Positions 18,537 through 40,115 of a DNA stretch of 64,000 nucleotides are shown here, one piece after another. Positions within the stretch are counted from its first letter, which is position 1. Each line of letters opens with the position of its first letter. The notes below the pieces were generated by a model that did not search any database, was not told where the DNA came from, and saw only the letters and a list, made by a program, of their open reading frames with translations. Source of the stretch: an uncultured Holophagales bacterium. GTDB taxonomy: Bacteria; Acidobacteriota; Thermoanaerobaculia; Multivoradales; UBA5704. The stretch spans positions 384,001-448,000 of the forward strand of contig CAWJGT010000001.1 of assembly GCA_963842525.1 (NCBI GenBank). Reading direction: 5' to 3'. Position numbers and translations under genes: made by a program.

Positions 18537-19882
18537 TCACGGCGCCGCCACCTCGGCCTCGATCTGCGCTGGCACTCCATTCCGCTCCGCCCAGGCCACG
18601 AGCGCCGCCCGGGCCCGCTCGGCATAGGCCGCCCGCCGGTCGCCCCGGCGCACCCTCTCCGGCAGCTCTTCGAACAGACCATAGTTGATGTTGGCCGGCT
18701 GGAAGTGCTTCGGATCGGACTCGGTCAGATGCCGGGCGAGAGCCCCGAGCGCCGTGGTGGCCGGGAACGGCTCCGGCTCCCGCCCCTGCCGTCTCCAGGG
18801 ACAGATAGAGGCCGATCGCCGAGCCCCGTCGCCGCCGATTCGAGATAACCCTCGACCCCGGTGATCTGCCCGGCGAGCCGCACCCGCGGCGTCGGCCTTC
18901 ACCCGGTAGAGCTTGTCCAGGTGAGTCGGCGCGTTGATGAAGGTGTTGCGGTGGATCTGCCCGAAGCGGACGAAGCGGGCGTTCTCCAGGCCGGGGATGA
19001 GCCGCAGCACCCGCTCCTGCTCGCCCCACTTCATGCGCGACTGGAAGCCGACCAGGTTGAAATGGCTCTTCGCCAGGTTCTCCTGCCGGAGCTGAACGAC
19101 CGCCCAGGGCCGGCGGCCGTCCGGGGCTGTGAGCCCCACCGGCTTCATCGGACCGTAGCGCATGGTGTCCTCGCCGCGCCGGGCCAGCTCCTCGATCGGC
19201 AGACACCCCTCGAAGAAGACCGCCTTCTCGAACTCGTGAGGCGCCACCACCTCGGCCTCCAGCGACCGCCTGCCGGAAGGCCGCGGTACTCATCCTTATT
19301 CATAGGGGCGTTCAGGTAGTCGTCCCCTTCGCCCTTGCCCCACCGCGACTGCCAGAAGAGCTTCGACAGATCGAGGCTCTCCGCCTCCACGATGGGGGCG
19401 ATGGCGTCGTAGAAATAGAGGTACTCGCTCCCCAGGAGCTCCTGGAGCTGCCGCGACATGGCCTCGGATGTGAGAGGCCCCGTTCCGAGCACTACCTCTC
19501 CGTCAGGGATCGACGTGACCTCCTCCCGCCGCAGCTCGATCCGCGGATGGGAGCCGATCGCCGCCGTCACCCGTTCGGCGAACCGGTCGCGGTCCACCGC
19601 CAAAGCGGCCCCCGCCGGCACCGCCGCCGCCCGGGCCGAGCCGATGATCAGCGACCCGAAAGCCTCCATCTCCCGCTTGAGCAGCCCGGCAGCATGGAAA
19701 GGATCGTCGCTGCGCAGCGAGTTGCTGCACACCAGCTCCGCGAGGTCCCCCGTCTTGTGAGCCGGCGTCGACCGCACCGGCCGCATCTCGTGGAGTACCA
19801 CGTCCATCCCGCGCTCCGCGAGCTGCCAGGCGCACTCCGTCCCCGAAAGTCCGCCGCCGACGATATGGACCGGTCCTGCCAT
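18537..19882 (-). CDS. trmFO: Folate-dependent tRNA U54 methyltransferase TrmFO (frameshifted)
   Basis: IVGGGLSGTECAWQ, AELVCSNSL, YFYDAIAPIV, FFEGCLPIE, GPMKPVGL, QIHRNTFIN, FQPANINYGL across split ORFs. Confidence 0.93.
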
Positions 19883-19983
19883 GCGGGGGATTATAGGGGA
19901 GGGAGCCTTGGGCCTTTCCTGGGACCGCGGGCGTCTCGCCCGCTTCCGGGATCGATCCAGCATGACTCGGGATCGATTTCGTG

Positions 19984-20310
19984 TCAGGCGGCTTCAGAGA
20001 GGCGACGGTTCATCACCCGCCAGAAAGTCGCCACTGCCGCGGACTCGCCGTTGAAGTAATCCTCGAAAAACCCGCAGCCGTTGAGGAGGGGTGGATAGGC
20101 GTAGCGTTCGTTGTCTTCGCCAAGCTCGCTCACCCAGTCTTCCGGCTCGCGAGCATCGATGACCGTGAAGAGCTCGTGAGGGTAGAGATAAGGCCGTCCC
20201 TGGTCGTTCAGGATCCGGAAATCATCGGCCTCGATTCCGAGGACCACATACGGCTGGCCCGGCGTCAGGTCCGGATAGCGTGAGTCCCGTTCGTGCAGCT
20301 CGACGATCAT
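19984..20310 (-). CDS. Hypothetical protein
   Basis: 108-aa ORF with natural composition (LTPGQPYVVLGIE...RILNDQGRPYLY). Confidence 0.65.
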   Translation of the reverse strand: MIVELHERDSRYPDLTPGQPYVVLGIEADDFRILNDQGRPYLYPHELFTVIDAREPEDWVSELGEDNERYAYPPLLNGCGFFEDYFNGESAAVATFWRVMNRRLSEAA

Positions 20311-20675
20311 CGTTCGGTGACCTGTTTCCGCTTCAGCTCCACCCCGGCCGATCCCAGGATGTTCGTTCCAGTGAATCTCATATGCGCCATCGTCATCCTC
20401 CTGCCCGTGGGCTGCTCTTCTTCACCCATCGGGAGGCACGGCCGCTATATTCTGCCACCAGCCGCTCGACATCTCGAATGAGCCGCCCTTTCGCGATGAC
20501 TCGCGACTGGGAGATCATCGCTGGGGCTTAAGGTCGGAATGGTGAGCGGCGCCTCCGCCGGCTCGCGACCGGGCAGACAACCTTTCCCCAGCCCCTGGTG
20601 TCTAACTGAATGGCTCTTCCGGAGCGTCGTCCGCAGCCCTTCGGGTGATCGTTGCGGCAGAGCGCATATGCCAAT

Positions 20676-20705
20676 TTGACCATGATGGGCGGTCTGCCTC
20701 AGAAT
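20676..20705 (+). promoter_or_regulatory. Putative sigma70 promoter of the island signalling operon
   Basis: TTGACC-N18-CAGAAT, same architecture as the fur promoter. Confidence 0.4.
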
Positions 20706-20791
20706 CTGTACCTCATCCCGGAATCTGTGGGACGCCTGAACCAACAGAGGAAGTGCGCAGGACCGTCGTAGTCCCAAGGGCAGGGGGAGCC

Positions 20792-22726
20792 ATGCCAGGC
20801 GATTCGGTCAATGAGTCGGTCGATGTCCTTGTCTACCTGAACCGGGGTGGCCTTCGGGAGGATGCCGGGCCCGCGGCCGAGGAGCGGAAACGCTGGAAAT
20901 TCGAGTTCTCCTATACCGCCCTGCAGAGCCGGCATATCGGCAATGTCATCTTCTGCTTCGACCCCGGCAATCCCCGAGCCATGATCCGGGCGAACCGGGA
21001 TCTGCGGAAGGCCGTGATTTGTGTCCAGTCGTCCGGCTTCGAGCTCAGCCCGCAGTGGTTCCAGACCGAGCTTCAATCCGCGCTCCGGGCGAAGCCGGGG
21101 CACCTCTTCGAGCCCGAGGAGGCCGAGGGGAAGGCGCTCTTTGAAGCCACCAAGGCGTTCCTCCATTTCGCCGGCGGCCAGATCGCGAACATGAACCTGT
21201 CGTCGATGGAGAAGAAGAGCCGGTTTGGGCCGCGCATGCACAACGGCCACACCGAAGGGCAACTCAAGCTCGATCTCAGCCGCAACGGAAATCTGTCCCC
21301 AACGGACCACCTCGCATTGCTGCGGTTGTGGTGGCTCACACTGGACTGCTTTCATCGAGGGATCGAGGGTGCGCTGCGTCGACAGGTGCTACCGGATGAT
21401 CCGGAGAGCCGGGCGATCCGGGCCACCGTCCTGAAGCTGAGGGCCCACCTCGGCGCGAGCCTGCTGGATTTCCAGGTCTTCGATGACCCCAACCTCCTCG
21501 CCACTCTCCATGAATCGATGCTGGAATGGATCGATTTCAATCTGGGGAACCGCACCCGTGACGACGATATCGATTTCCTGGACAGCCGGCACGAGGAGTT
21601 GGGCGACCTGCTGTTCGAGGTCAAACGGGCGTCTCCACACCTGCTTTCGCCTTTTCGGGGATTGCAGAGCAACGGGGCACCGCCAGCGGTCGGCGATTGG
21701 CGAGAGTCCCGGCATATCGTAGTGCGCGAAGCCGTGCTGTCGGCCCAACGGCTGCCGGACGAACGGCGGTCCCGGGACATCATCGATCGTTATGCGGATT
21801 GTCTCCATCGGACCGGGGATCTGTTCTCGAAGCGGTATGACATCCGTGAGCTCGTGGCGATCAGCAATGCATGGCCGGAGATCCGGAAATCGCCAGCGCG
21901 ACGCCTGCCGCTACGCGAAAGGGCCACGGCATTCCTCAAGGGCACCTGGAGACATCTCCCGTGGCCCTATCCAGCCTTTCTCCTCCTGGGCTTGTTCGGC
22001 TGGCTTCTGTTTGCTTGGAATACATCTGGAACAACCATCCTCAGGCCTTTTACAGAGACTGCCTTTTCGATCGTATTCTCCGCCCAGTACTCGATTGTCT
22101 ATGCTATCCTGGCGTACTTCATCCTGTTCGCACCACTGGCAAGGAAGCTGCGTCTGTTTGCTCAGGCCATGCCGAAGATTCTTGGCAGCCTGATCGTCGG
22201 CTACGTTCCCCTCTGGCTTCCTCAGGAGACATGGACCTTTCCTTTCTACATGAGCTGGGAGGCCGTTCTCGTCTGCACGTTCGTCCTCCTCATCATTTCG
22301 TATCTCTACTTCGCGGTCGAGGTCTCAGGAAAGGTCAAGATGCGAGGAGAGGCCCTCCAGAAGGCAACGGCGGTCTTCCTCATTGCCGCCGCCCAGGCCT
22401 ATTGCATCGGGTTGCTGATCACCGATTTCTCGGCCCGGTATTTCACAGAGGCCTTGCCGGCCTCTCTCGTTGGAGATACGGGTGTTGGACGGAAAACATT
22501 TTCCAACTTGTATGTGATGCTCGACAGCCTGGGGCAAAGTTTTTATATCACGAATCCGCTCTCTCTGTTCGGCCACTTGATCCCGGGCGTCGATCTGTCG
22601 GGCTTCACGAGCCACGAGTTCTGGCTGCTTCCGAAGCTCCAGGTCTTTTGGTTCGGATTGGCGATGTTTATTGCCGTCTTCCTGCACATGCTGTGGGAAA
22701 AAGACGGGATCCTGGAGCGGCTCTGA
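20792..22726 (+). CDS. Uncharacterised protein: large soluble N-terminal region plus about six C-terminal TM helices
   Basis: ATG 20792 after GGGGAG; hydrophobic segments from WPYPAFLLLG to FLHMLWEK. Confidence 0.8.
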   Translation: MPGDSVNESVDVLVYLNRGGLREDAGPAAEERKRWKFEFSYTALQSRHIGNVIFCFDPGNPRAMIRANRDLRKAVICVQSSGFELSPQWFQTELQSALRAKPGHLFEPEEAEGKALFEATKAFLHFAGGQIANMNLSSMEKKSRFGPRMHNGHTEGQLKLDLSRNGNLSPTDHLALLRLWWLTLDCFHRGIEGALRRQVLPDDPESRAIRATVLKLRAHLGASLLDFQVFDDPNLLATLHESMLEWIDFNLGNRTRDDDIDFLDSRHEELGDLLFEVKRASPHLLSPFRGLQSNGAPPAVGDWRESRHIVVREAVLSAQRLPDERRSRDIIDRYADCLHRTGDLFSKRYDIRELVAISNAWPEIRKSPARRLPLRERATAFLKGTWRHLPWPYPAFLLLGLFGWLLFAWNTSGTTILRPFTETAFSIVFSAQYSIVYAILAYFILFAPLARKLRLFAQAMPKILGSLIVGYVPLWLPQETWTFPFYMSWEAVLVCTFVLLIISYLYFAVEVSGKVKMRGEALQKATAVFLIAAAQAYCIGLLITDFSARYFTEALPASLVGDTGVGRKTFSNLYVMLDSLGQSFYITNPLSLFGHLIPGVDLSGFTSHEFWLLPKLQVFWFGLAMFIAVFLHMLWEKDGILERL

Positions 22727-22742
22727 GGAGGCGAAGACGACC

Positions 22743-25700
22743 ATGCGACGGCCGGCAATCCTGAAGATGTTCTCCGGGCGCAAGGAGCGCTCCGAAGAGT
22801 CGGAGCTGCGGACTTACCTCGAAACCTATCGCTCCTTGCTGACCACGCAGCTCGACGTTCGCCGGTTCGCTGAGGAGGTCGAGGAGCTGAGGGACCGGAA
22901 CGATCAGCGCGTGCGGGCGTCCAAGAGGAACGAGCTCGCCTACATCTACCTCTATTTCTCTCGGCTGGTGCGCGGAGAGGTTGCGGGCGGGGCGGAAATC
23001 GAAGGGATCGACCGGATCTTCTTTTTACCCCTGGATCCGAACGAGCGCATCGCCTTTGTGTCCCACCGCAAAATGGACGAGGAGGAGCCTGCCGCCGAAA
23101 GAGACCAGACGGTGTTCGAGTTCTTCCAGTTGCCCGCGAAAGACCGCGGGTGGGGCGGCGCAGGTTCGGCCGGAAGTGACGTCGACGCCACCAGCCTGGA
23201 CCTCGATGGGGTTGACAGGGATTTTTCAGGGCTTCTGGCGGTGATCGAGAAGGAAGTCGGACGGCCGAGCGGGAGCCTGCTGATCATACGGCAGACGGTC
23301 CCCGATACGCCGGCCTGTCTTCTCGTGATCACTTCGCTGCGGGGTGGAAGCGGAGCTGAAAAGAGCTTCGGTGAGGACGATGAGAAGGACCTTTCGGCCT
23401 TGACCCGTATGTTCTTTCAGACATACCGCTCGGTCCGGCTGGCGAGCTTCACGGAGGCCTATCGGGAGCTCGTCAACGACAACCTGATCCTGCCGACGCA
23501 GTGGAGCGAAATCGAGGCCACGAAGGAGGAGAACCGGATCGATGCTCCGGAGGGCATGTCGATCCGTTCGTTCGCACCATTCCTCTGTTTCTTCTGCGAC
23601 TCGCTGTCGCGCGCCGACGTCCTCCCCGAGATGGACAACGCGTTCTTTTTCCCGCTCAACAGCCAAGTGTACTACCTGTATCACAACGTCGCCCCGGCGA
23701 TGCGTCCCAAGCTGAACGCAAGGCTCCAGGTCGGCCACCTGAAGATCGAGGACGAAGAACGCCGGGAGGTTTTCCAGAGCATCCGCAGCCACCTGGCGGA
23801 CACGAGGCCTCCAGCGCAGGAGGGGACGCGGGAGGATCGGTGTCGGGGGATGTACGCGGATACGCTCGAGCTCCTGTACACGGCCGCCTCGCCGGACGCC
23901 GGCACCAGGAAGCTTCAGGGAAGCCTGACAAGCGTCGAGAAGAGGATCAAGAGCTATCTGACGGCGCTCAAACAGCAGGATGAGCACAGGGCCTCGCCGC
24001 TCTTCACCGCCATCGAAGTGGCTCTCTTCGGAACGGTCCACTGGGATGAGTGGGGCCTGGACAAGATGGACGAGCGTTTCCTCACTTATCAGGAGGCCGC
24101 ATCCGTGCCGGCCGACCAGGGGGTCGCGTCCGTGCCGGCCGACGAGAGCGGGTCGTTCGGACGCACGGGCAGCCTTCTCGCCATCACCATTCTGGTTGAT
24201 CACCTGCCCCTGGGCATCCTGTTCATCAATTCGTTCTTGTCCGGAGCCTTTGGAGAAGAGGACCAGCGTGACATCCAGGCGATCAGCCGGGGTTATTTCC
24301 AGACCTTTCAGACACGTATGCTGGCGGACATCGTCAACGAGTATCAGAAGCTCGGATCGAGCCTTTCGGTCTCCGCCCTGAAGCGGGACAAGAGCCTGAT
24401 CCCCGAGGACGTCCGTGAGCCTCTCGCGCTCTACTTCGAGCGTATGTTCCAGGGATTTGAAGACCTCGAGGTCGGCGCCTTCCTCGCGGTGGACCGCGAC
24501 AGGCTCTCTGTCTATCAAAAGTCTGCCCGTGGTGGCGTGGCGGGCAGGCGCGTCGAGCTGCGCAGCGAGCCGAGAGGCTCAATACCGGCGGACAGGGCAC
24601 CTTGGGAGAGGTGCTCGCCAGGGAGATCCGAAGTGCCCCCACGGACGGGACGAACCGGCCCATGGGATGGTTTTACCGCTGGGCTCTCCTCCGCTCCCTC
24701 GCGCCGGAGCATGAGGTGCTCGCGGCGTATCCTCTGAACGACATCCCGGTCCGGCTCTTCGGGGCGGAGGAGTACGTGCAGAGCAGCAGCGAGCCGAAGC
24801 TGCGCTCGGTGCTTGTATCTGCATGTTTCGAGGCCAGCATCCTCGACGAGGACTTCCCCTTCCTGCGGCAACTGCTGCGCCAGGTCACAGGCGCCGATCT
24901 CCTGCGCTCCCATACGGGCTCCGTCATCGCTCTGGCGCTCTTCTACGATGCCCTGCCGGCAGGGTTGATCCTTCTCTGCTCCTCCAGTTTTCCTTGCCTT
25001 CACGACCCGGATCGAGGAACGCGACGCCTCCATGGCCACGCGTGCCTTCTTCCTGCCGCTGCAGATGGAAGCACGGGAAGAGGTGATTCATGCCTATCAG
25101 AACATCCTCGGCGAAGGGAGCGGGCAGCATCAGGAGTTCTTCGATCTGGTCCGGGACTTCCTCATCGCAATGGCAGAGTCCCTGCCCACGATGCAGGCCG
25201 GCCTCTTCTTCTCCCTGGACCGCGACGTCCTCGTCTCGGTGACCGTCGGTCCGGACAGGGTACCTGTTCCCGAACGGTGGACCGGCCGCGCGCTTCAGGA
25301 TTTCGGACAGGCGTCGGACCTTCTCGAGGATGAGTTGGAAGGCAAGATCGAGAAGATCGAAAGCAGGGCTCGCGGCCTGGAAGCTCCTGCGGAAAAGGGC
25401 GATCCGAAGGCACAATCCGAGCTCCGGGATGCCGATGTCCTGCACCTCTATCTGCGAGGGGTCCTTGACCTCTTCCAGGGGAGTCGAAAACCCAAGGACT
25501 ACGATCTGGGTCGCCTGGTCGAAAGGATTTTCGATCGGCCCCTGCCTGCGGAGCTGAAAGACGCGCAACGGTCGGACATCAACATCGGCCTGCGTTCCCA
25601 CATCCACGTCCGGGCCTGGTCGAAGTGCCGGTTCCGCGAGACCTTTTCCTATCTCCATCGGGTCTTCGCGTTGGAGGAGAGAGATCCGATGGCGCGCCGG

Positions 25701-27990
25701 GCCACGGAGATCTACGAGCAGCACTGGAAGGGCGGCGGCGCGCTCCTCGCGGTCCTGGTGCTCCAGGAAGGGTTGCCGATGGGCATTGCTCTCCTGGCTT
25801 CGCCGATCGAGGGCTCCTTCACGGAGCATGAGCGAATCGACGTCGACCGGAGCGCGCGGGCGTTCTTCTCGGAAGGCCAAGTCCACCTGCGCGACGAGAT
25901 CATCCTGGCCTACCGCAACATCGTCCGCGGAATGCTCTCCGAGGCGGGAGCCCAGGAGCACATCGAGAGGTTGAAGGACAGAAACGAGAAGCTTCGTGCT
26001 GCCCTGGAAGATGAGCTCGCGGGTTATCTGGCCGTTTTCATGGATGTGATGTTCAAGGCGTTTCGCGCCGATCCGCCATCGACGATCCTGTTCCTGCCGT
26101 TCACGGACCAGACGCTCTATGTCGGGCAAACAGGGGAAGAGTCCGCGTCCTGGCTGAACCGGCTGGAGAAGACGGGCATCGAGGGGATCGGGCAGGATCT
26201 GCCGGCAGGGACGGCATGGAGCGGTTTCATCGGCGATTGGCTGTATGATCTCTACAAGGACATCCAGGCGCAGAAACCCGGGCTGCCTTCCGAGCCTCCC
26301 AACAGCCCGTCGGAAATCCTTTCTGTGCTGCGTGCGGACACGGACACCGCGCTCGCCACCTTCATCTTCAGCGGGCAGAGATATGACGATCCTCTCCAGG
26401 AAGTGCACCGCCATGCCTACCTGGCTCCCTTCCAGAAAGTCCTGGTCGGCGAAGCTCCCGAACGGGAGGCCGCTTCCCTGCTGGTGACAGCCCTTCTCTA
26501 CGACAACCTGCCCGCAGCCGGCCTCCTCATCATCCATTCGCCGGTTCCCTGGCGCTTCCGGAGCAGGACCGGTTGGACGTCGAATCCGTATCCCGGGCCT
26601 TCTTCCTCACCTATCGCTCCGTCCGCCTGCGGCGCGAAGCCACCCGTGCCGCCCGGCTTAAGGGCATGCAGGACATGCTGCTTGGAGTGACGCACCGTTT
26701 GAAGAACGATCTCGAGCCCACTCTGGGTGTGATCGACTCGCTCCGCAAGATCGTCAATCTGGATTCGAGACAGATCCCGGGCGAGGTCCGGGAGCACGAG
26801 CGATTCGGGCTGCTCGAGGCGGGCGAGCTCGGCATCGCCCAGGTGAAGAAACGTTTCGAGCTCCTCCGTTCGGTCATCTCGGACTCGTCTCACGTCCGCA
26901 GGGCACGTCCGCTTCGCCATCTCGCAGAGCAGTTCGAGAAGCATGTCGGGGATTACAAAAGGCGTGTCCCCTTGCGCCAGGCGAGGTACAGGACCGAAAA
27001 GGTCCGGCTGTCTCTGAACGATGCGACGCCCGAGCCTTTGAGCCCGCTCGGGCTCTCTGCCGACCGCATCATCACGGATCTGGAAGAGACCTGGATCGAT
27101 GTGTCGGATGGCCTGGACGAGGTGCTGGCTATCTATGCCGAAAACGCTGTCAAGGCTGTCGCGGGACCCCTCCAGCGAGACAGACACGATCCATCTCTGG
27201 TGCCTGCGCAATCCGGAGAGCCCAGACCGGATCGATCTCCTCTTTTATGACCGGGTGCTCATACCCCAGGAGAAGATCAGATACATCCGCAACAAAGAAG
27301 TGATCCCCATGGAAGTCGGAGGCGGGAGTGGAACCGGGCTCTACAATGCGGGGAACCTCCTGAAGCTGAACGGAGACGGCGAGCAGAAGGTCGACTCGAG
27401 CGAGCAGATCCGCGGCACCGCCCTTTGGCTGACGGTTCGAACGGCTTCGGGTCGAGTCCGTGGAAGTCAGCTCGGACGAGCTCGTCGAGAACATCGAACG
27501 CTGGCGCGAAGCGGTCCAGCGCGTCGCTGGCGGAGACTCCATCGAATGGAGCCCACCGGAGCGGCTCGCACCCGCCCGGCAGGTGACGCTCTACGACGGC
27601 AGCTACATCTGGCGCGAAGAGCTGATGCCTATCCTGCTCCAGATCTTTTTGCAGAGGCACCAGAACCTGCGGCAGAAGAAAAAAGAACCCGCTCTCTATC
27701 AAGTTTCGATCCGGATCTTGCCGGCGGACGATGGAGGAGTTGTTGTCGAGCTCCACGACAACACCCGCTCAGGTTTCACCAGGGACTATGCTCCGGAGGA
27801 GCATCAGAAAGATCAGTTTGAACGCAACCACAATGCTCCCAGCAGGATGGGTCCGTCGGGTGCTGTGGGAAGCTGGTTCGTGGCGATGCAGGACCGTTTG
27901 TCCCGGCATCTCGGGGTCGATCTATCCTTCGGAAAGACCGCGGACCGGTATACATCGATTACCCTGAGAGTGCCGCCTGCGCCGCACTAA
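22743..27990 (+). CDS. Giant sensor histidine kinase (~1750 aa, several frameshifts): five GAF-like repeats, HisKA, HATPase and a second degenerate HATPase-like domain
   Basis: Joined ORFs 22671-24737, 24602-25333, 25032-26690, 26573-27250, 27099-27821, 27460-27990; H-box THRLKNDL, N-box AENAVKA, G-box GSGTGLY; the last domain may be a separate gene from 27460. Confidence 0.7.
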
Positions 27991-28012
27991 GTCGACCGGA
28001 AAGGAGAGTGCT

Positions 28013-28396
28013 GTGCGAGTACTGATCGTCGAGGATGGGAACGACGTAGCCCTGCGGTACAAAAGGGAGCTTGCGAGGCATGGATTCGAGTCCCAGGTGG
28101 CCGGGGATGTAGCGACTGCCAAGAGGCTGGTTGAGGAACTAACGTTCGACGCCGCTCTGGTCGATATGGGGCTTCCCCGCGATATCGCATCTCTCGATCC
28201 TGAGGAGACCCGGGACAATCCCGAGAACGGTCTCCGCTTGTTGGATTGGCTCTACGAGGAGATGGGGATTCCGGTCTTCGCCCTGACGGGAACTCTTGAT
28301 CCGGAAAAGATGAGGTATATTGAATGCCCCCTGATCCCGAAGCCGGTCAATGATTTCGAGAAAGAGGTCATTGCTCTTCTGAGGAGGCTGCAATGA
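28013..28396 (+). CDS. Single-domain response regulator
   Basis: VLIVED, AALVDMGLP, VFALTG, IPKP. Confidence 0.88.
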   Translation: MRVLIVEDGNDVALRYKRELARHGFESQVAGDVATAKRLVEELTFDAALVDMGLPRDIASLDPEETRDNPENGLRLLDWLYEEMGIPVFALTGTLDPEKMRYIECPLIPKPVNDFEKEVIALLRRLQ

Positions 28397-28414
28397 GCCG
28401 CCAGGGAGCAACCC

Positions 28415-29323
28415 ATGGATGGAGTCGTCATGACCGCGAGCCCTGACGAGCGCAAGCGCGCGGCGTTGCAACGTATCCGAGGAGAAGGCATGGACGAAGT
28501 ACGCGAGCACGCGTTCTTTATTGGAGAGGCCGCATCTGGCCTCGCGGAAGCGTACAGAGGCCGTCGCTACGCGGTCCAGACAGCTCCTGGCCTCATGGAG
28601 GGGCGCCAGCTCCTTTCCGAAACATTCCCGGCACAGGGGAAGTCGCCGAAAGTTCTCCTCGTCGTCGCCGTCGACTCTGGGCATGCAGGGAGTCTCGATC
28701 CACTGCGGCGTCTTGTCGAGCCGCTCGACCGGCTCCTGGGAGCCGACCCCCGGATGGTGTTGCTCGGTGAAGCGCGTCTCGGCGATTTCAGCTCGGTCCG
28801 CAGTCTACTGTGGTCCCATGTCGTGGACTGGTTCTCGGCGGATTTGGAGGAGGCGACGGCGCTACGGCGCCTGGACCGTGCGTGGCGGAGGAATAGCTTC
28901 CGGCACCGGCTGCTTGGCCTCGGGCTCGTGTCGGGGGCACCGGTGCACGTGGTGACGCATCACAAGACGCGGTTGCAGATGGCGAAGGACATGAGGCTGG
29001 ATCAGCTTTCGAAGGAACCGCTCTTCCGCTCCGCCGTCAAGGGGACCACAAACGGCCCTTCCTGGGACTCTTTCGCCGAAGATCTGTACTGGGAGCTCTG
29101 GGCATCCATTCAGGACAGCCCTGAGGAATGGGCGGAGTCCTTCGATCTGGGACAAGCGCGGCTCGAGGCTCTGAAAGCGTCAGGGCTGGGCAGTCAGGAA
29201 AGCCGGCTGTTGCTCCTTCGCTTCTGGTGTGCGCTCCTTGCGGAGCGGATGGAAGGGGTCATCGACATGACCCGCAAGGATCTGAGGGGAGCTCGAAGAG
29301 TATGTCGAGGCTCTCGAGTGTGA
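28415..29323 (+). CDS. Hypothetical protein, possible pseudo-receiver N-terminus
   Basis: 302-aa ORF inside the operon with alternating beta/alpha pattern but no canonical DD/D/K residues. Confidence 0.6.
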   Translation: MDGVVMTASPDERKRAALQRIRGEGMDEVREHAFFIGEAASGLAEAYRGRRYAVQTAPGLMEGRQLLSETFPAQGKSPKVLLVVAVDSGHAGSLDPLRRLVEPLDRLLGADPRMVLLGEARLGDFSSVRSLLWSHVVDWFSADLEEATALRRLDRAWRRNSFRHRLLGLGLVSGAPVHVVTHHKTRLQMAKDMRLDQLSKEPLFRSAVKGTTNGPSWDSFAEDLYWELWASIQDSPEEWAESFDLGQARLEALKASGLGSQESRLLLLRFWCALLAERMEGVIDMTRKDLRGARRVCRGSRV

Positions 29324-29346
29324 TTTTCTGCAGGAAGGGGAGGACA

Positions 29347-31022
29347 ATGAGTGACCCGCATGAGTACGAAGTGACCCCAGGGCTTCCGGAAGGCAAGCTC
29401 GTCCTGGTGATCGATGATGACAAAAACTTTCGGCAGCTCTGCATTGGCAAGCTCAGGAGGGCTCTGACGGAGCGCGCACCGGAAGAGAAGGATTTGAAGC
29501 TCCTCCCAGCGGGTTCTTTGGAGAAGTTCCAGGCCATTCTCAAGATGCTGGAGGCCGACAGCCGGAAAGGCGATCTCGTCTATGCGCTCGTCGACCTTAA
29601 GCTGCCGGCAACGGAACGGCGTGAGGAGCCGAATCAGGCGCCCGCGACCGAGAACGGCAGGGATGTCTGCCGGGCGCTGCGGGAGTGGAACGTTTTGCAT
29701 CTGCTGGTGTCCGGGGCCGGTCGTTCTGATATCGACGAGGTCGTCATCCCTGATCAGATGGACTTCCGGTCCAAGGACGACTTCAACGACCAGGAGACAG
29801 TCAAGGAGATTGCCGAGAGGGATCCTTTGCGCCAAACACAAGACACCGATCATCAGCCTGGATTACTGCGACGTCATCGCTTCTCCGGTCGAAGAACGGG
29901 GGCAGATGAGGCGCCTTCCCCTGGCCTTCAGGTCTTCGTCGATGCGAAGTCTGCGCAACCGCATCCTTGGCAGGGTGGCTCGCGAGGCGGCCTCGGTCCT
30001 GTTCCTCGGTGAGCCCGGTGTCGAATTCGAGCAACTGGCTTGGCTGCTCTTCCGGGAGATCACGCGGAACGGCACTGGACCAGAGCAGGCTCCCAGGTAC
30101 CAGTACCGCATGTTCAACTGCGAGGGTGGAGCATCTCCCATCGATCTGCTTAGGGAGAGTGAGAGACACCTCGATGACCCGCAGGGTCAGCGGCCGCCTA
30201 CATACTTCTTCATCAGAAACCTCCACGTTCTCGACAAGGCCAAGCTCGCGCAGTTTTGCGACGAGCTTGGGAGCTCCTCCAGAGTCCGTCTCGGCGGAGA
30301 CCGCGTTGTCCTGACCCTTTACAAGGGCAAGGGGGATGGAACAGAAAGGCTCCTCGACCTGTTCTGCCTGGCCGGTTTTGATGACTTCGTCCTCCTGGAT
30401 GTTCCTGGGCTTTCCGGGAAGCGGCGCGAGGACATTGAGGTCTATGCAGAATACTACCGGCGCCAACGTACGGATCAGCAGGACAAAACCGTCCGGTTTC
30501 ACCCCTTGGCGCTGAAGCTCATCAAGGACTTGGACTACAAGAGACACTTCAAGGACCTCTCCATCTTCCTGGATGGCCTTTTCCGGGCCGTGGGAGGAGG
30601 TATGATTACCGCGAAGGTCGTCCGCTCCGCTCTGCCAAGCCAGTTCGTGCAGACAGCGGTCCAGGAAATCCTGGACCATATCCTGACGACGGACGCCGAG
30701 GATGAGGAGGCGACCGCGTGGTCTCCAGGCCGTCTTCACGAGATCTGCTCGCAGACTCCTCGTACACCGCGGAGATCAGGAGTCCTCGATGGGCGAGGAC
30801 GAGGCACTGGATCAGTTCTACCAGGAGCTCGAGAGGATTGACGAGGCGCTCCAGCAGGCGAGCCGCCTGGGTACGGAAGGAAAAACGCTGATGGAGGAGC
30901 TCAAGAAACAGAGCCCTGGCTTCTGGCCGTGGAACCGGTACCCATTCTGTCCTCGCCTGATGAAGCATCTCCAACGGAACGGTCTCACGGTGGGCCTCGT
31001 CGAAGTCGAAGCCAAGCCGTGA
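29347..31022 (+). CDS. Receiver plus degenerate sigma54-activator AAA+ domain (frameshifted)
   Basis: VLVIDDD...ALVDLKLP; VLFLGEPGVEFEQLA in place of Walker A; MFNC; VPGL..RREDI; no GAFTGA loop. Confidence 0.7.
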
Positions 31023-32733
31023 AAGCGAATTCGCCCGCCAAGCCGCTGGTCCTCGTCGTGGACGACGATCCCGCCGTCCGTCTGGAGACCTTCTTCGATC
31101 CCGAGCGCTTCGAAGTGGTGCGCTGTTTCGATTGCGAGAGCGCGATCGACGAAATGATTCAGCGTCTGGAAGCTGGAGACGGGGAGGCGTGCTTCGCCTT
31201 CGTCGACATCGTGCTGCCGATCCATCGGGGCTCCAAGGAGATGGACCCCCGGGCCGGCCTCCTGCTCATGCAGGAGCTCAAGCAATTGCGGCCGGGCATC
31301 TTCCTCGTCCCGATTACAGGAAAAGGATGGGGGACGGAGGCCGCCTCGAAGCGTCGGGATCCTCGACGAGGCGAGGACGATCGGCATCTGGGAGTACATC
31401 TCGAAGCCCGTGACGCGGAACGAGGTGCTGGCGGTCGTCGAGAGGGCGATCCGGCAGCACGAGCCGGAAGACGGGGAGGGGAAGGATGCCCTCCTCAAGC
31501 GCTATGCCGTGAGCTTCGGCGGAGGAGAGGTCCGCTACATCGTCAGCGGCGACAAGGTCATGCAGGACGAGGTGATCGGACGGATCGCCATGGAGGGGCC
31601 GAGCGACACTCCCGTGCTGATCAATGGCGAGACCGGTACGGGCAAGGAGCTCGTGGCCCGGGCGATCCACCAGGCGAGCGGGAGGAGGCGCTTCCTCTCG
31701 GTCAACTGCGCCGCAATCCCGGATTCGTTGATCGAAAGCGAGCTCTTCGGGCACGAGAGGGGCGCCTTCTCGGGTGCTGACGGGCGGAGGACCGGGAAGT
31801 TCGAGCTCGCCGACGGCGGGACGATCTTCCTCGACGAGGTCGGCGATCTGAGCCCACCGGCTCAGGCGAAGCTGCTCAGGGTGCTGCAGGAGCAGGAGCT
31901 CGAACGTCTCGGAGGCACGGAGACGATCAAGGTCGACGCCCGCGTCGTGGCGGCGACCAACCAGGATCTGGAAAACATGATCCGGCAGGGACGTTTCCGC
32001 GAGGACCTGTACTACCGCCTCGAGGGAATTGTGATCCGCATTCCTCCCCTGCGCGAGCGCCGGGACGACATCCCGTTGATCGCGCGCTACTATCTCGAGC
32101 TCCTCAACGAGAGGCATTCGTGCGAATGCCGGTTGGCCGACGGCGCTCTCGCGAAGCTCTCCGGATACCACTGGCCGGGCAATGTGCGCGAAGCTCCAGA
32201 ACGCTGTGAGCTATGCATTTTCGAAATGTGGCCGCTCGATGATCTCGGCCGAAGACCTGCCCCCAAAGGTTGCCTCTCGCGATGGGCGGCAGGACCGGCG
32301 ATCCACTCTCTCCGATCTCGCGCGGGAGATCGTCACAGATCCTCTCCTCAGCCTGGGTGTGGCCAACATGCTGATCACCCAGGAGGTGTATCGACAGTGC
32401 AATGGGAGGTCGGAGGCCGCGTGCAAGGCGCTCGGAATCTCCCCCAACACGCTGAACAAGTACAGGCGCTCGATGGACGAGGTCTCGGAAGCATTGATCG
32501 CCGCCGGTTTCGACGAAGAGCGTGCGGCGAGGAGCTTGCCGGACTTCGGCTCCGCCTCCTTCCTGAGACGGCGGCTCCGCGCCTTCCTCTTCGGCCTGAG
32601 CGAATCTGCTCTCGTCCGGTACCAGGAGCAGAAGGGTTATTCCCGCCAGTGGCTCGACTATATGAAATGGGTCCAGAGTCTTCCGAGCGAAGACGCCGCC
32701 GCTCCTGGGAACGGCCGGGAGCCGGGAGCCTGA
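31019..32733 (+). CDS. NtrC-family sigma54-dependent response regulator (REC-AAA-HTH; frameshifts near 31355 and 32190)
   Basis: VLVVDDD; GETGTGKELVA; ESELFGHERGAFSGA; FLDEVG; FREDLYYRL; WPGNVRE; HTH AACKALGISPNTL. Confidence 0.9.
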
Positions 32734-32737
32734 GCAG

Positions 32738-33866
32738 CTACGAGGCGAGTTCCAAAATTCCTAACCTTTCCAGCTCTTCCACCGCGGCCTCGACCTGGGA
32801 TTCGACGGGACGGGCCGGAGCTGACAGGAGCTGCTTCCATTCCGCCAGACACTCGCACGTCAATCCGTCCAGGACCCGCGCGTCCTGTGTCAGGTTGAAA
32901 TTCTGGATGACCTCCAGGGCGGCCGGAGTGCATCGTTCACAGTTGCTCGGCTCTTTGGTGGATCGCGGATAGACGACGCTGCCCCCGGCGAGCACCTCGC
33001 CGGACGGCTGGAGAGATCGCAGGACTTCGATCAGGCTCCACAACCGTGGTGGCTGGTGGAGGTTCTGCCTCCAGAGGAGATGGGCCAGCGTACCCTCCTG
33101 GACCGTCAGCGGCTCGACAGATACGGCGTCCGTTCCGCAACTGAATGCGAATCGACCGGTATCGATCGCCTCCTGCACGGCGGTCCGCTCGTCCAGAAAA
33201 GGAGGCTTCAAGACGATGTAGGTCGAGCCCGGGCGCCCGTTTCGAGGATGACAAGAAAAATGCGATAGGTCGGCTGCGGCGTCGAGCTTGTTCAGACAGA
33301 GGGCCCTGACATTGGCGTCGACCGAATCGAAGCCCAGCCCAACTACGAGCTCGATCGAGCCGAGATCCTCCCGGGCGGACCGGATCGCATCCAGCCGGAT
33401 CAGCTCGGGGCGGCACTCCACCACCAACCGCTGGACGACCCCACACCGGGCGATCTCCTGAAGGACCTGGGACCGCACCCCGGCATCCAAGCTCCTGATC
33501 GTCGAAGAACGATCCCGCCACGTACAGGCAGAGGACCGGACACTCGCTCCGAGCCACGCGGTCGGAGCTGGGTCCGAAAGCTCGCGAGGGCCACCCCCCA
33601 GCTCAGCTTGCGGTCCCACAGGCCATCCTTGATGAGCCCGCAGTGCGTGCAGGTGTCGGTCGGCCGAAACCGGCGAGCAGCCCCACGTAGGGAGCGCCGC
33701 CGACTTCCCGCTGAGTCACTTCTCCTCGGAAACGGGTTGGAAGAATCGAGAACGTCTCGAGCTGCTGAAAATCCGGGGATGCCGACTTGGGCTCCAGCCG
33801 GACGGCTGTCGCAACCAGCCTGCGGACCCGCCCGAGGAGATCGCGGTTTACGCGCTTGTCAACCAC
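32738..33866 (-). CDS. Radical SAM enzyme related to archaeosine-synthesis RaSEA (TIGR01210 family), frameshifted
   Basis: Reconstructed LPTWGC...TCTHCG; YVAGSFFDDQE; VECRPE; YIVLKPPFLDE; VQEGTL..LW....PPRLWS; NCERC; CEC..EW. Confidence 0.78.
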
Positions 33867-34737
33867 GGGGGAGCCAGTCCCAACTCGACGAGGAAATATT
33901 TCTGCTCCTCCTGAAGACGATCGAAGATCACCTGGAACTTCACCTGACGCTGCGGATCGAAGTCCCTGATGAGGCCCGCGATGTAGCCCATCTCGTCCTC
34001 CAGATAGCCCTTCAGGATCTCGGACCCGCGGTTCATATCGCCGCCGATCTTCTGCAGGAAGATGACGGTGTTGAAATTGGCGATCTCGACGTCCTCGTAA
34101 TAATCCCGGATGTCGTCGAAGACCTCTCGTACCTGATCGATCCGCTTGAACACGGCCATCTCTTGTCGATATCCCGGGATCTCGAAGAGACGCAGGAGCA
34201 GCCGGCGCAGCATTCGAGGTCGGCCGATTTGAGCCCCAGGATCGAGAGGATCTCTTCCTTGGAATACTGTCCTTGCCCCGGAGACTCCCGCCGCTCCTTT
34301 TGCAGGTAGGTGACGACCTGGCTCACGCAACGGTGGATCTCAGGGTCGAGGAGATCGTGGTCCTCCAGAAAGCTGATGATCCTCTGGCCCACCCGGTCGA
34401 GGTCCGGTCCATTCGCAGGAGTGGGGCCGAGGCTCTCCTGCTCGACGTTGATGTCCATCTCGTACACGATCGTCTGCACGTAGGTCAGCCAGGTGAGCGC
34501 ACGCAGGAAGCGGTCGAGCTGGACCTCGTGGAAGTCGATGGCAAATTCCTTCATATCGAAGGCGAAGGTGTGGAAGATCTTGCGCAGGACGTAGAAGTGT
34601 TCCCGCAGGAAGGCGTCGTGGTACTGCTGAAACGACTCGGACGGGCTCTCGGGAGCCTCGGTGAGATACGGAAAAGACTCCGCCTTGCGGTCGATGAGGG
34701 TCGCCTCTCCCTTGCCGAAGATCTCCTTGTCGATCAT
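33848..34737 (-). CDS. Class I isoprenoid/terpene-synthase-fold protein (prenyltransferase-like), frameshift near 34215
   Basis: Helical acidic protein; YEMDINVE, LKSAD and FDDIRDYYEDVEIANFN (DDxxDxxED motif). Confidence 0.6.
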
Positions 34738-35545
34738 GGCTCGGTTCTCTCTCCCTGTCCTGCATCACGGATCATCCCGGCGATCTCGATCTCCAGCTTG
34801 ACGAACTCGGGGAGAGTCTTGGAGGCGAGCTTCCTCGGGCGGCCGAATGGCACGATGATTTGGTTCTTGAGGCGGCTTGGACGGGCGGTGGAGACGTAGA
34901 TCCGGTCGGCGAGGAAGAGCGCTTCCTCGATGTCGTGTGTCACGAAGATCACCGTGACGCGCATTCTCGCTCCAGACGTTCAACAGGAGCTCCTGCATGC
35001 GCCAGCACGTGTCCGCGTCGAGGGCGCCGAAAGGCTCATCCATGAGAAGGACTTCCGGTTGGTTAGCCATGGTCCTGGCAATGGCGACGCGCTGCTTCAT
35101 CCCCCCGGAGAGCTCTTTGGGGTACTTGTTCGAAAGGCGAGGAGGCCTGTGGCGCGAAGATAGCGCTCCACGGTCTCTCTGCGCTTTTCCTCGGGCTCTT
35201 CCCGGAGGCGCAGACCGAATTCAATGTTCTTCTCGACGGTGAGCCAGGGGAACGAAGTGTAGGATTGAAAGACCATGCCGCGATCGCGCCCTGGAGCGTC
35301 GACCCGGATGGCGTCGATGTAGACGTTGCCGCTCGTCGAGTTCCTCGAGCCCAGCTACGATGCGAAGGAGCGTGCTCTTGCCGCAGCCGGAAGGGCCAAG
35401 GATGACGAGGAACTCACCTTCCCGGACGACGAAATCGGCGTTCTCCACGGCGGCGACCGACTGGCCGTTGGGTCTGACGTACGTCTTAGTGACGTTGGTC
35501 GACCTTGATTTTGATCTCTTCGTGGATGTTCAAGGGATGGCTCAT
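34734..35545 (-). CDS. NitT/TauT-family ABC ATPase (frameshifted)
   Basis: [51 protein letters not shown]. Confidence 0.88.
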
Positions 35546-36763
35546 TCCTTCCACGGCGAGACGAGCCGGGTCAGGATTCGGAAGCCGAGATCGGTGAGCA
35601 CACCTATGATCCCGATGACAAGGATACCCGCGATCACCACGCCTGTCTGAAGGAATCTCTGCGCCTCGATGATGCGGAACCCGATCCCGACCTGGGCCGC
35701 CACGAGTTCCGCGGCAATAAGATAGGTCCAAGCGGCGCCGATCATGGCGCGCAGACTTTCGAGAATCCCGGGGAGCGCCGCCGGCGTGACCACTCGGAAG
35801 AGCACCTGCCTGCGGGTTGCCCCGAGTGTGTATGCCGTCTCGATGAGCTCGCTGCGTACCTCCGCGGCGCAGGCGGCAATGAGGACGAGCAGATAGAAGA
35901 ACACGCCCAGGAAGATGATGGCGATTTTTTGCGAGTGGCCGATCCCAAGCCAGAGGATGATGAGGGGAATGAAAGCCGACGCCGGCATGTAGCGAAGGAA
36001 GGCACAAAAAGGGTTCACGAAAGCCTCGATGGGTCCGAAGCTTCCCATGAGGATTCCCAGGGGAATGGCGACGGCTGACGCCAGCGCGAACGCGGTCATG
36101 ACTCGGAAGATGCTGGCACCGATATCGCTCCAGAACCTCGGTTCGGTGAGGAGGTCTGCCAGGACGTATAAGACGTCCTGTGGAGAAGGCAGGAAGATCT
36201 GGTTGATCATCCCAAATTCGGTCAGAGCCCACCAGAGGAACAGGGGGAGAGCGAAGGCCAGTGTACCCAGCAGGGACCCTTCTTCCGCGGGAGAGCCGGT
36301 GTCTAAACTCGAAGGTCGACGGTCCAAAGGACCGGGGCTGAAGGCAGCGGACGAGGCGTTCCACCTTCTCCTTGGAGGCGGGCTTGGTAATCCATCCCGC
36401 CATGCCGATCTCGCCGGAGCGCTCCAGCACGTCGTAAGTGTTCCCGTTCATTCCCCACCCATGCCCCGTGATCGGAACGGACTTCGTGGAGGGGCAGATC
36501 TTCCTGATCTCCTCCATGAGGCCCAACCCTGCCAGGGGCGTCGGGGTGGGATCGGACCGGTCGACGGGGAGGGCCATGTCGACGACCGCCGCCAGCGGAG
36601 CCGGGCGGCCCTTTTCGGTGGCCGCTAGCAGATAGTCGAGAGCGGACTCGCAGTCATAGACGCGAACGGGGCGCAGGCCGGCCTTCTCGAAAAGGCTCTC
36701 GAGGTCGAGGGTCCGGTCGTCGTCGACGATCAAGACTTCCTGCGATTTTCTCCGCAATCCCAT
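35542..36763 (-). CDS. Receiver domain fused to NitT/TauT ABC permease (one frameshift near 36278)
   Basis: REC (VLIVDDD, VVDMALP, PITG, ITKP) reads without a stop into FEFRHRLSRGRR, then LLGTLAF...FLPSP...ELIETAYTLGA...AWTYLIAAE. Confidence 0.78.
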
Positions 36764-36798: not shown

Positions 36799-37803
36799 TC
36801 ACTGAGGTTTCTGGCTCTCCGCCAAGAGGCTCGTGTCCACGAACTCCTCCGGGGCTACGGCAGTCTTCACCAGTCCTTCGGTTGTCCAGACCTTGCCGGC
36901 CGCGGTGAACACGCGCGCAAATTCACTCGGAGAACCTCCTACCCCGAAGTACTTCGTATTCTCCGGATAGTCCGCCAAGCGAATGCCGCCGAGGATGGCG
37001 TTCCAGTCGGCAAGAGGAAGGTTCAGGTTCTTTGCCATCAACTTGTTGGACTCGTCAGGATGCTCTTTCATATAGTCGAGAGCGGCAAACCACCCACGGA
37101 TGAATTTCTTGAAGTCTTCACGGCGGGTCTGGAGGGCCCTCTTGTTCGCCACCACGATGTCGGAGATCAGACCGGGAGCCATCTCCTTGGTCGTGAGCAG
37201 CACGTGCCCTCCCTCCCTCTCCGCCGCCTTGCTGAGCCAGGGCTCCCAGGTGACGGCCGCGTCCACTTTTCCGGCCACGAAAGCGGCTCCGGCCTCCCCC
37301 GCTTCCATGTAGTTGACTTGGAGGTCGCCGCTCTTGAGCCCGTTCTTTTCCAGGGCGTCGAGGAGGAGGAAATGGGAAGGCATGCCCTGGGGAAAGGCCA
37401 CCGACCTGCCCTTGAGGTCGGCAACGGTCTTGATGTCCTTGGCGGCGATGATCCCATCTCCCCCGAAGGAATCGTCGGTCTTCAGAATGGCGATCGCCGG
37501 AAGGCCGGCGGCGGCGGCATTGGCGAAATCGTCCACGGTCGCTGCCATCGCCTGAATCGAGCCCTGAGCAAGGGCGGCCCGGCGCCCCGCAGCATCGTCG
37601 AGGATCTGGATGTCGACCTGGAGACCATCGAACAGGCCCTTGTCGCGGGCGAGGAAGAATGGACCAGAGCCGACCCAGGTGACGACTCCGATGGTGAGCG
37701 GCTCCGGGTTCGGTTTGTCAGGTGTGGTGCAAGCGGCCAACCCGAGGAGACAAAGCAGGACGAGTGCTACCGAGGCGACGGCAAAAGTCATTACGCGTTT
37801 CAT
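36799..37803 (-). CDS. ABC substrate-binding lipoprotein, SsuA/THI5/NMT1 family
   Basis: Lipobox LAAC; TWVGSGPFFLARDKG; DDSFGGDGI; DLKGRSVA; VDAAVTWEPW. Confidence 0.92.
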   Translation of the reverse strand: MKRVMTFAVASVALVLLCLLGLAACTTPDKPNPEPLTIGVVTWVGSGPFFLARDKGLFDGLQVDIQILDDAAGRRAALAQGSIQAMAATVDDFANAAAAGLPAIAILKTDDSFGGDGIIAAKDIKTVADLKGRSVAFPQGMPSHFLLLDALEKNGLKSGDLQVNYMEAGEAGAAFVAGKVDAAVTWEPWLSKAAEREGGHVLLTTKEMAPGLISDIVVANKRALQTRREDFKKFIRGWFAALDYMKEHPDESNKLMAKNLNLPLADWNAILGGIRLADYPENTKYFGVGGSPSEFARVFTAAGKVWTTEGLVKTAVAPEEFVDTSLLAESQKPQ

Positions 37804-40100: not shown

Positions 40101-40115
40101 AGGGGCGGGGCTTCT

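Follow-up and report, generated by a model that had tools for sequence, protein, structure and literature searches.

A RaSEA-like radical SAM enzyme encoded with a terpene-synthase-like partner in an uncultured Holophagales bacterium: a candidate module for isoprenoid-linked radical chemistry

Kainoid-type pathways follow a two-step logic in which an N-prenyltransferase, DabA or KabA, acts first and a radical cyclase dependent on alpha-ketoglutarate and iron acts second. Radical S-adenosylmethionine (SAM) enzymes can also act on isoprenoids, HpnH (adenosylhopane synthase) and MqnE being precedents for a 5'-deoxyadenosyl radical working on an isoprenoid double bond or olefin. To our knowledge, however, the radical SAM branch formed by RaSEA, Elp3 and MnmL is known only from tRNA modification. 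RaSEA itself forms a complex with ArcS and turns preQ0-Lys15 into archaeosine, and free ArcS is inactive, according to the published account (PMC11298593). Here we describe a gene pair in a 64,000-nt stretch of DNA from an uncultured Holophagales bacterium (contig CAWJGT010000001.1, positions 384,001 to 448,000; the window hereafter, whose own numbering is used throughout). The pair encodes a RaSEA-like radical SAM enzyme and a partner protein with a predicted terpene-synthase-like fold. On balance we favour the view that the two form a new, uncharacterised two-enzyme module, in which the partner would act on a prenyl diphosphate and the RaSEA-family enzyme would carry out a radical step. The module appears to be undescribed so far: outside subscription journals, our literature search found no description of bacterial TIGR01210 homologues or of a radical SAM enzyme paired with a terpene-synthase-like protein.

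The two genes occupy positions 32738-34737 on the minus strand:

32738..33866, minus strand: RaSEA-like radical SAM gene, about 375 codons once its frames are followed, with six one-base indels and a GTG start at 33866
33859..34737, minus strand: partner gene of the terpene-synthase-like family, about 292 codons once its frames are followed, with two one-base indels and a TGA stop at 33861-33859

Three-frame translation and frameshift-aware DNA alignment, guided by the nearest homologues (P0026 for the radical SAM enzyme and P0007 for the partner), showed that neither gene has an open frame as deposited. Relative to these guides, the radical SAM gene carries an extra base near 33701, 33676, 33564, 33491 and 33283 and lacks a base near 33224, and the partner gene lacks a base near 34214 and carries an extra one near 33880; the motifs that characterize the two proteins are therefore scattered over all three frames. 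A preliminary description, made from the sequence alone, had listed these motifs, and all were found on the minus strand: WGC..C-THCG, GSFFD, ECRPE, LKPPFL, PPRLWS and NCERC for the radical SAM enzyme, and DDIRDYYED for the partner. The overlap that it had placed between the start of the first gene and the end of the second was recovered as well, and measures 8 nt once the frames are followed. What did not survive is the intactness of the pair, as both genes are broken by frame changes that the description had not reported. The frame-corrected copies keep 64 of 65 invariant residues in the partner and 24 of 25 in the radical SAM enzyme, with no stops. A single-frame C-terminal part of the radical SAM gene (32738-33619, 293 codons) matched TIGR01210 (E 1.1e-40, 139.8 bits, profile positions 86-304 of 313) and no other NCBIfam model; the pieces of the partner taken from the window matched neither Pfam nor NCBIfam.

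Intact copies exist elsewhere. A genome of the same order (G037) carries a syntenic locus in which one strand encodes a substrate-binding protein (SBP), a permease, an ATPase, the partner (299 aa) and the radical SAM enzyme (366 aa), and convergent genes encode a receiver protein, a 305-aa protein, a 597-aa protein and a sigma-54 activator. Public collections yielded eight further loci. The radical SAM gene lies downstream of the partner gene in all eight loci that have any downstream sequence, namely the window, L014, L015, L023, L025, L026 and two truncated ones, L022 and L024. Not counted are L016 and L027, whose sequence stops within the partner gene. The start-stop overlap is 8 nt in L023, as in the window, and 4 nt in L015. 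Equal lengths of the longest contig further suggest that the close radical SAM homologues P0023, P0024, P0025 and P0027 share contigs with the partner homologues P0002, P0003, P0004 and P0011. Neither protein was found in five genomes of the same genus, and the partner was found in none of 400 other sampled genomes of the phylum (the wider partner superfamily described below in none of 300).

The radical SAM enzyme is RaSEA-like but is not RaSEA. The curated TIGR01210 cut-off is 212.15 bits; the intact copies of G037, L023 and L026 score 197.9, 193.8 and 205.8 bits, all below it, and the Calditrichota copies of L015 and L025 score 233.1 and 227.7, both above. The TIGR01210 assignment proposed earlier therefore stands as a match, for the window fragment and for the intact members of its subclade, but only the Calditrichota copies pass the threshold. 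C59, C69, C72, GSF, E146, P149, KPP, PxLW, NCxxC and CxC are invariant in all 22 aligned sequences, named archaeal RaSEA included, and archaeal RaSEA and the bacterial clade have the cluster motif Cx9Cx2C in common. In a quick maximum-likelihood tree of 59 rows, the 11 unfused partner-linked enzymes form one group (approximate likelihood ratio test, SH-aLRT, 94), joined by two rows of unknown context, and all 11 rows named as archaeal RaSEA fall into a separate group (SH-aLRT 80); two fusion proteins have very long branches and were left unplaced. The tree suggests that the partner-linked enzymes are a bacterial sister clade of archaeal RaSEA. A third TIGR01210-like clade (P0029, P0031, P0032, P0044, P0084, P0087, P0090 and P0101) stands apart from both; its members are mostly about 390-430 aa long, and one of 513 aa has a receiver domain.

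The source genome (G000, 96.4% complete) gave no match to the ArcS domain (PF17884, DUF5591), which was detected in three archaea used as controls, and for QueC only two weak N-terminal matches were obtained, at 25.6 and 23.3 bits against a cut-off of 150.3. The only TGT gene it has is located on another contig, C6, and, as had been claimed, no tgt, arcS or que gene falls within the 64-kb window. The preliminary description had named an archaeosine pathway in this genome as something that would speak against its proposal; the genome was checked, and is without ArcS and without QueC above the cut-off. The sole NCBIfam match of the window fragment, taken with the above-threshold scores of the Calditrichota copies (233.1 and 227.7), could be read as a true RaSEA completing an archaeosine-type pathway in the source bacterium. 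With neither an ArcS domain nor QueC in a 96%-complete genome, a window clade below the cut-off (197.9, 193.8 and 205.8), a tree group separate from archaeal RaSEA and an invariable link to a partner that is not ArcS, we consider this extremely improbable. Archaeosine is thus very probably not the product of the module.

The partner is a new family with, as far as structural modelling can tell, a class I terpene-synthase-like fold. Among 5.8 billion clusters we found 21 close homologues, all unnamed or labelled 'hypothetical' and without a Pfam domain, and scans of the partner itself gave zero Pfam and zero NCBIfam families. Invariant in all 21 sequences are the stretch FDDIRDYxED..NFNT, with D215, D216, R218, D219, E222, D223, N228 and N230, and the residues D102 and E106; several Arg/Lys residues and an N-terminal FGKGE..IDR are also shared. 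The AlphaFold 2 model of the intact G037 partner is all-helical (mean local confidence, pLDDT, 82; predicted template modelling score, pTM, 0.81). When it was compared with known structures by VIA-align, which is independent of Foldseek, every one of the best 50 rows was a prenyltransferase, a terpene synthase or a squalene-synthase-like protein, at Z values of 15.2-11.8; the alignments extended over 203-257 residues and covered the partner from about residue 46 to 292 of 299. The isoprenoid-synthase fold that had been predicted from sequence is thus the one that structure prediction returns.

An exhaustive profile search extended the family to a wider superfamily of 165 representative clusters at E <= 0.001, 36 of them at E <= 1e-10. 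Alignment of 86 of the 150 listed representatives gave the consensus ExxDDLxDYxxDxxxxxFN, with D/E nearly invariant at the positions of D102 and E106, and no core-domain family was found in these 86 distant relatives. A search of the Protein Data Bank (PDB) with the 86-member profile gave a hit to one chain at E 0.0012, that of Sat1646, a class I diterpene synthase, and the alignment puts the conserved DDLxDYxxD..FN opposite NDLASYERD, which we take to be the NSE/DTE metal-binding motif of that enzyme. The proposal that DDIRDYYED is an isoprenoid-synthase metal motif is in line with this alignment. The comparison with ComQ and DDxxD enzymes made at the same time was looser: the fold agrees, and the motif does not, being of the NSE/DTE type, with a first motif of DxxxE and no PF00348 match. 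The nearest named Atlas cluster is a YtpB-type terpene synthase (score 0.90), which we treat as a lead only. Unusual members of the wider superfamily (P0153, P0187, P0163, P0167, P0171, P0186 and P0229) comprise tandem domain duplications, the CrtC-type fusion described below and several long serine-rich proteins that look eukaryotic.

Natural fusions and neighbours tie the pair to isoprenoid precursors. P0173 (617 aa) consists of a radical SAM enzyme (TIGR01210, 69.7 bits) followed by a partner-like domain, and three parts make up P0159 (750 aa): a NUDIX domain resembling type 1 isopentenyl diphosphate (IPP) isomerase, a radical SAM enzyme that scores 105 bits with TIGR01210, and a partner-like domain. 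The permease, ATPase, partner and radical SAM genes of L026 are followed by one for a membrane protein with about six transmembrane segments and then by one for a type 2 IPP isomerase, which scores 295.6 bits with TIGR02151 against a cut-off of 281.3. Two unrelated isomerase types in two settings, one a neighbour and the other a fusion, thus hint at a substrate drawn from dimethylallyl diphosphate (DMAPP) or IPP; these two cases are the strongest hint that the substrate of the module may derive from either compound. One further superfamily member fuses a CrtC-type lipocalin (carotenoid hydratase) domain, a partner domain and a methyltransferase.

We propose that the partner would bind a prenyl diphosphate through its Mg-binding DDxxDxxxD (NSE/DTE-type) motif and would ionise or transfer the prenyl group, the C5 unit of DMAPP or IPP being the most likely one. 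The radical SAM enzyme would then perform a 5'-deoxyadenosyl-radical step on the prenylated intermediate, and by analogy with RaSEA this could be hydrogen abstraction followed by cleavage of a C-N or C-C bond or by rearrangement. An ABC (ATP-binding cassette) importer, encoded upstream in some loci, would supply a small-molecule co-substrate. Because of the IPP-isomerase links, prenyl-diphosphate chemistry is favoured over archaeosine formation in tRNA. The earlier suggestion of radical chemistry on a prenylated or amino-acid-derived metabolite rather than on tRNA is therefore largely upheld at the level of fold and of pathway context (the IPP-isomerase links, and a genome lacking ArcS and QueC). 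Prediction of a complex between the radical SAM enzyme and the partner of G037 gave a score of 0.00 in both runs; the controls remained unfolded too, so that this result counts neither way.

Several observations weigh against this proposal. Similarity in fold between all-helical proteins is weak evidence, and by the tool's own note background Z values for helical bundles in VIA-align reach 13-14. Foldseek returned no match for the partner model at E <= 0.001; almost all rows listed have the class I isoprenoid-synthase fold, with a best E of 7e-3, and two named 'Hyp' could not be placed. No isoprenoid-synthase hidden Markov model (HMM), whether polyprenyl_synt, SQS_PSY or terpene synthase, matched the partner, PF00348 giving no match at E <= 0.1, and the profile check that had been suggested for it came back with zero matches. 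The profile of the close family against all PDB chains reached a best E of 0.08, with unrelated proteins. The first Asp-rich motif is not canonical, DDxxD being absent and an invariant D102xxxE106 standing at the end of helix 81-109. A likeness of DYxED to squalene synthase was considered but found no support, as hhalign against an SQS/PSY alignment, with nine open reading frames (ORFs) of relatives, gave a probability of 0.06. The tie to IPP isomerase consists of one fusion representative and one locus, the other loci, the window included, having no isoprenoid gene nearby, and the isomerase domain of P0159 lies slightly below both curated cut-offs (NF002995, 124.5 bits against 127). Finally, we know of no characterised relative of the radical SAM clade, among RaSEA, Elp3 and MnmL, that does not act on tRNA.

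Part of this evidence would fit a partner that is a helical scaffold or substrate-binding subunit, with the radical SAM enzyme acting on an imported compound such as a sulfonate or an amine, and with the likeness to terpene synthases reflecting shared helical architecture. The missing HMM match, the non-canonical first motif and the high background Z of helical folds are all compatible with such a role, as are an SBP of the SsuA/TauA type and the need of RaSEA for ArcS as a structural partner (PMC11298593). A scaffold would leave unexplained, however, why the invariance of acidic and basic residues falls precisely on the NSE/DTE position, why two independent associations link the family to different types of IPP isomerase, why a superfamily member is fused to a CrtC-type carotenoid-hydratase domain, and why the nearest named cluster is the terpene synthase YtpB (0.90, again as a lead only). 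We judge this explanation to be quite unlikely.

Another possibility is that the pair modifies bases in nucleic acid, tRNA or DNA, with the partner serving as group transferase in place of ArcS; it might, for instance, add a prenyl or some different group for the radical SAM enzyme to remodel. The families nearest to the enzyme by HMM are RaSEA, Elp3 and MnmL/YtqA, all named as tRNA-modification enzymes, and RaSEA works only in complex with the transferase ArcS (PMC11298593). A nucleoside hydrolase gene, which in the Calditrichia locus precedes the partner by about 3.4 kb, and CHAT-SAVED and CHAT/JAB genes near the pair in G037 and L026, could be taken in the same direction. However, neither tgt nor ArcS nor QueC is linked to the pair, and the latter two were also not found genome-wide; the distribution is very sparse (0 of 400 other genomes of the phylum); translational coupling to an ABC importer, seen in four loci, would be unusual for tRNA enzymes; and PADLOC gave no hits, nor did family scans detect an RNA-binding domain. 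We therefore think base modification unlikely, and continue with the prenyl-diphosphate module as the preferred reading.

In the window, the pair is flanked by transport and regulatory genes:

34764..35511, minus strand: ABC transporter ATPase, with a frame change near 34963 (-2 to -3; tblastn with the G037 and L023 ATPases); PF00005 matches the L023 and L026 orthologues
35545..36763, minus strand: ABC permease with an N-terminal receiver (REC)-like domain, with a frame change near 36240-36294; PF00528 matches the orthologues
36799..37803, minus strand: periplasmic SBP of the NitT/TauT (SsuA/NMT1) type, an intact ORF of 334 aa
37876..37890, minus strand: sigma-54 promoter-like site TGGCACCTGCTTTGC, 73-87 nt upstream of the SBP start
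31007..32679, plus strand: sigma-54-dependent response-regulator activator, convergent with the operon, with two frame changes (frames 2, 3 and 1; tblastn with G037 and L023)
24021..31001, plus strand: conserved regulatory block with a homologue of a 1399-aa protein, an intact receiver-domain protein and a degenerate AAA/sigma-54-like protein of 546/597 aa (tblastn against L014 and L023)

The order SBP, (REC-)permease, ATPase, partner and radical SAM enzyme is colinear in the window, G037 and L023, with successive genes overlapping, and L026 has the same order from the permease on, with no recognisable SBP. In this lineage, gene order and overlaps indicate that the pair probably makes up the translationally coupled distal genes of a sigma-54-dependent ABC-importer operon. 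Both the importer operon and the sigma-54 control had been missed in the preliminary description, which was right about the overlapping pair itself. The operon sits on a horizontally acquired island of low guanine-plus-cytosine (GC) content, and no tRNA genes were found in the window as island borders. Since the operon begins with an importer and lies on an acquired island, the imported small molecule may be the co-substrate. The G037 orthologue of the SBP matched PF13379 and PF09084, and scored 133.1 bits with SsuA_fam, below the cut-off of 163.5. Less favourable to the importer as a part of the module is that it lies upstream in only four of the nine loci with upstream sequence; three Calditrichota loci have a TPR protein upstream of the pair instead of ABC genes.

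In a consensus scan, the site upstream of the SBP was the sole mismatch-free sigma-54 match in the window, and L023 has a sigma-54-like site with one mismatch at the equivalent place. The pair has sigma-54 activators beside it in four loci (the window, G037, L023 and L015), and the G037 orthologue matches PF00158 with 219.8 bits. Upstream of the G037 SBP gene no site was found within two mismatches, which argues against such control there. The regions preceding the partner gene in L015, L024, L025 and L026 likewise had no site within two mismatches where one would be expected. Receiver residues 19-148 of the activator orthologue also match the N-terminal region of the permease (36736-36350, 39% identity), and a 465-residue open frame of L023 (L023:4591-5985) matches the window permease in frames -1 and -2; this L023 frame aligns over the REC-like N-terminal part too, and a permease controlled by phosphorylation would be unusual. 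The protein of about 1400 aa beside the regulators (24021-27972 in the window, L023:13461-17660 and L014:1-3840) has no Pfam or NCBIfam match and may be the sensor of the regulatory block.

Other neighbours are more varied. In the Calditrichia locus L015 the pair is flanked by a RihA/RihC-like nucleoside hydrolase (5578-6552) and by a 1124-aa CotH-kinase/lamin-tail protein (12254-15628). A CHAT-SAVED protein in G037 (L014:14086-16101) and CHAT and JAB proteins in L026 (15343-18697) lie a few kb from the pair; proteins of these kinds are typical of cyclic-nucleotide-sensing defence effectors, and no functional tie to the pair was found. To the right of the window operon (38985-40186), small genes resembling those for a CopG/BrnA-type antitoxin and a Uma2-family endonuclease were recognised by reading translations. 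Two short elements, at about 45365-45466 (about 100 nt) and about 45890-45975 (about 85 nt), recur in dozens of copies in G000 and all five same-genus genomes at 84-96% identity, and look like a dispersed repeat family of the REP/MITE type (repetitive extragenic palindromes or miniature inverted-repeat transposable elements).

The frame changes in the pair are part of a larger pattern. A stretch of the window from about 18.8 to 36.3 kb (18793..36294) contains at least 24 frame changes and, by its GC profile, spans the border between the core genome, represented by trmFO, and the low-GC island. The island genes, the pair included, account for at least 19 of them in about 13 kb: apart from the pair, two fall in the sigma-54 activator, two in the 546/597-aa homologue, at least five in the 1399-aa homologue and one each in the ABC ATPase and permease, and the frames of the SBP and receiver genes are clean. 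On the core side, trmFO (18576-19901, minus strand) is split into two overlapping ORFs by five one-base insertions near 18793, 18821, 18892, 19264 and 19284, as compared with four same-genus genomes, so that the five fall within 1.3 kb. The names trmFO, xerC and hslVU come from reading translations and not from a family scan. In xerC, which lies beside trmFO and was compared with same-genus genomes, and in the stretch 46590-49843, indels occur only in multiples of three. About 21 kb of essential genes elsewhere contain one frame change, and a 3.25-kb flank contains none. The former affects rpoB (G000:C9:670320-670723, outside the window), which is split over two frames near its N-terminus; rpoC, gyrA, ileS and several paralogues each occupy one frame. 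The rpoB gene of G000 also has an insertion rich in CxxC pairs, resembling a zinc ribbon, between conserved N-terminal blocks. Of the 13 indels mapped to the base, 11 are insertions.

Contigs assembled from other soil-metagenome runs have the opposite indel at all eight sites of the pair, and therefore the relatives they represent are intact. Identity to the window is about 90% for one of these contigs (1242 nt) and reaches 95-99% for shorter ones; being contigs, they do not allow read depth or strain identity to be judged. The stretch was found in five sequencing runs, each with 5-6% of the sampled words, and none of the five is on record as RNA.

Because the essential rpoB is split and the core gene trmFO carries five insertions, a technical cause is indicated, and since the indel-dense stretch takes in trmFO, the indels of the pair are most likely assembly errors as well. 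We are thus largely confident that the frameshifts of the window are errors of a long-read assembly that received too little polishing locally, and the roughly 17.5 kb concerned have the look of a single such piece. As the frameshifts are probably an artefact, the source organism likely carries intact genes. The competing explanation, a pseudogene pair decaying on a dying island, with the indels being true mutations and the module lost in the source organism, appears improbable to us. It would account for the contrast between the island, where 13 kb hold at least 19 frame changes, and the essential genes (one in about 21 kb) or the 3.25-kb flank (none), for an island absent from all five same-genus genomes, and for relatives in other samples being intact at all eight sites. 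It does not sit well with the same type of one-base insertion striking the adjoining core trmFO (five in 1.3 kb) and, once, the essential rpoB. Natural gene decay is deletion-biased, whereas 11 of 13 indels here are insertions. No in-frame stops have accumulated, 88 of 90 invariant residues are kept, the SBP and receiver genes within the island are clean, and the whole stretch resembles one unpolished long-read piece. If the indels were real, the window copy would be dead, which would count against the module in this organism. As a practical lesson, a stretch of about 17.5 kb with one-base insertion errors breaks the gene calls of all its genes.

A more specific version of the prenyl-diphosphate module can be imagined, in which the ArcS/RaSEA logic has been moved onto isoprenoids. 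The partner would ionise DMAPP, supplied in some lineages by dedicated IPP isomerases, and the amine of a donor, such as lysine or the imported compound, would trap the allyl cation; by means of a 5'-deoxyadenosyl radical, the radical SAM enzyme would then cleave the C-N bond of the donor or cyclise the adduct. The product, formed without oxygen, would be a hemiterpenoid containing nitrogen, an anaerobic version of kainoid-type chemistry and a new biosynthetic class. We offer this as a speculation with a low chance of being correct. Were it true, the wider superfamily, with its 165 representative clusters, its lack of Pfam domains and some apparently eukaryotic members, would amount to a sizeable branch of the class I terpenoid synthases that has so far escaped recognition.

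The broader proposal, if true, would mean that the RaSEA/Elp3/MnmL branch has also been recruited for small-molecule, isoprenoid-linked chemistry. It would also mean that every curated model has missed a terpene-synthase-like family with 21 close members and 165 wider clusters, occurring in fusions with radical SAM enzymes, IPP isomerase, a CrtC-like domain and methyltransferases. Constructs for direct tests are at hand in the natural fusions and in the orthologues with intact frames, and work on them could reveal a new oxygen-independent route to modified hemiterpenoids or other prenylated metabolites.

The closest described system is ArcS-RaSEA of Euryarchaeota. The radical SAM enzyme shares with it the TIGR01210-type architecture, Cx9Cx2C, GSF, KPP, PxLW and the C-terminal CxxC...CxC, and is always encoded with a dedicated partner, just as RaSEA forms an obligatory complex with ArcS (PMC11298593). 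Unlike in that system, the partner is terpene-synthase-like and not ArcS (PUA/DUF5591), and the genome has neither ArcS nor QueC; the bacterial enzyme stands in a separate clade of the tree, with the window subclade below the TIGR01210 cut-off, and carries about 45 additional residues at its N-terminus as well as the stretch THCGL..DGLWD behind the cluster motif. On the side of the partner, the pimarane-type diterpene synthase Sat1646 (PDB 7e4n/7e4o) has a similar all-helical fold (Z 13.2 for 7e4o), and its NDLASYERD aligns with the DD(I/L)xDYxxD..FN of the partner, but the relation in sequence is borderline (E 0.0012, one chain) and the partner has D102xxxE106 and no DDxxD. Unlike class I terpene synthases in general, the partner has no terpene-synthase Pfam match and is always coupled to a radical SAM enzyme. 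HpnH and MqnE belong to other radical SAM subfamilies, and are not known to be paired or fused with class I synthase-like proteins or IPP isomerases. The kainoid pathways resemble the proposed module in their logic, with an enzyme of terpene-synthase fold prenylating an amine and a radical enzyme following, and DabA (6vkz) and KabA (9m1w) are among the fold matches of the partner; they differ in that the partner has no sequence similarity to DabA or KabA, and in that the radical step here would fall to an oxygen-independent radical SAM enzyme of the RaSEA family.

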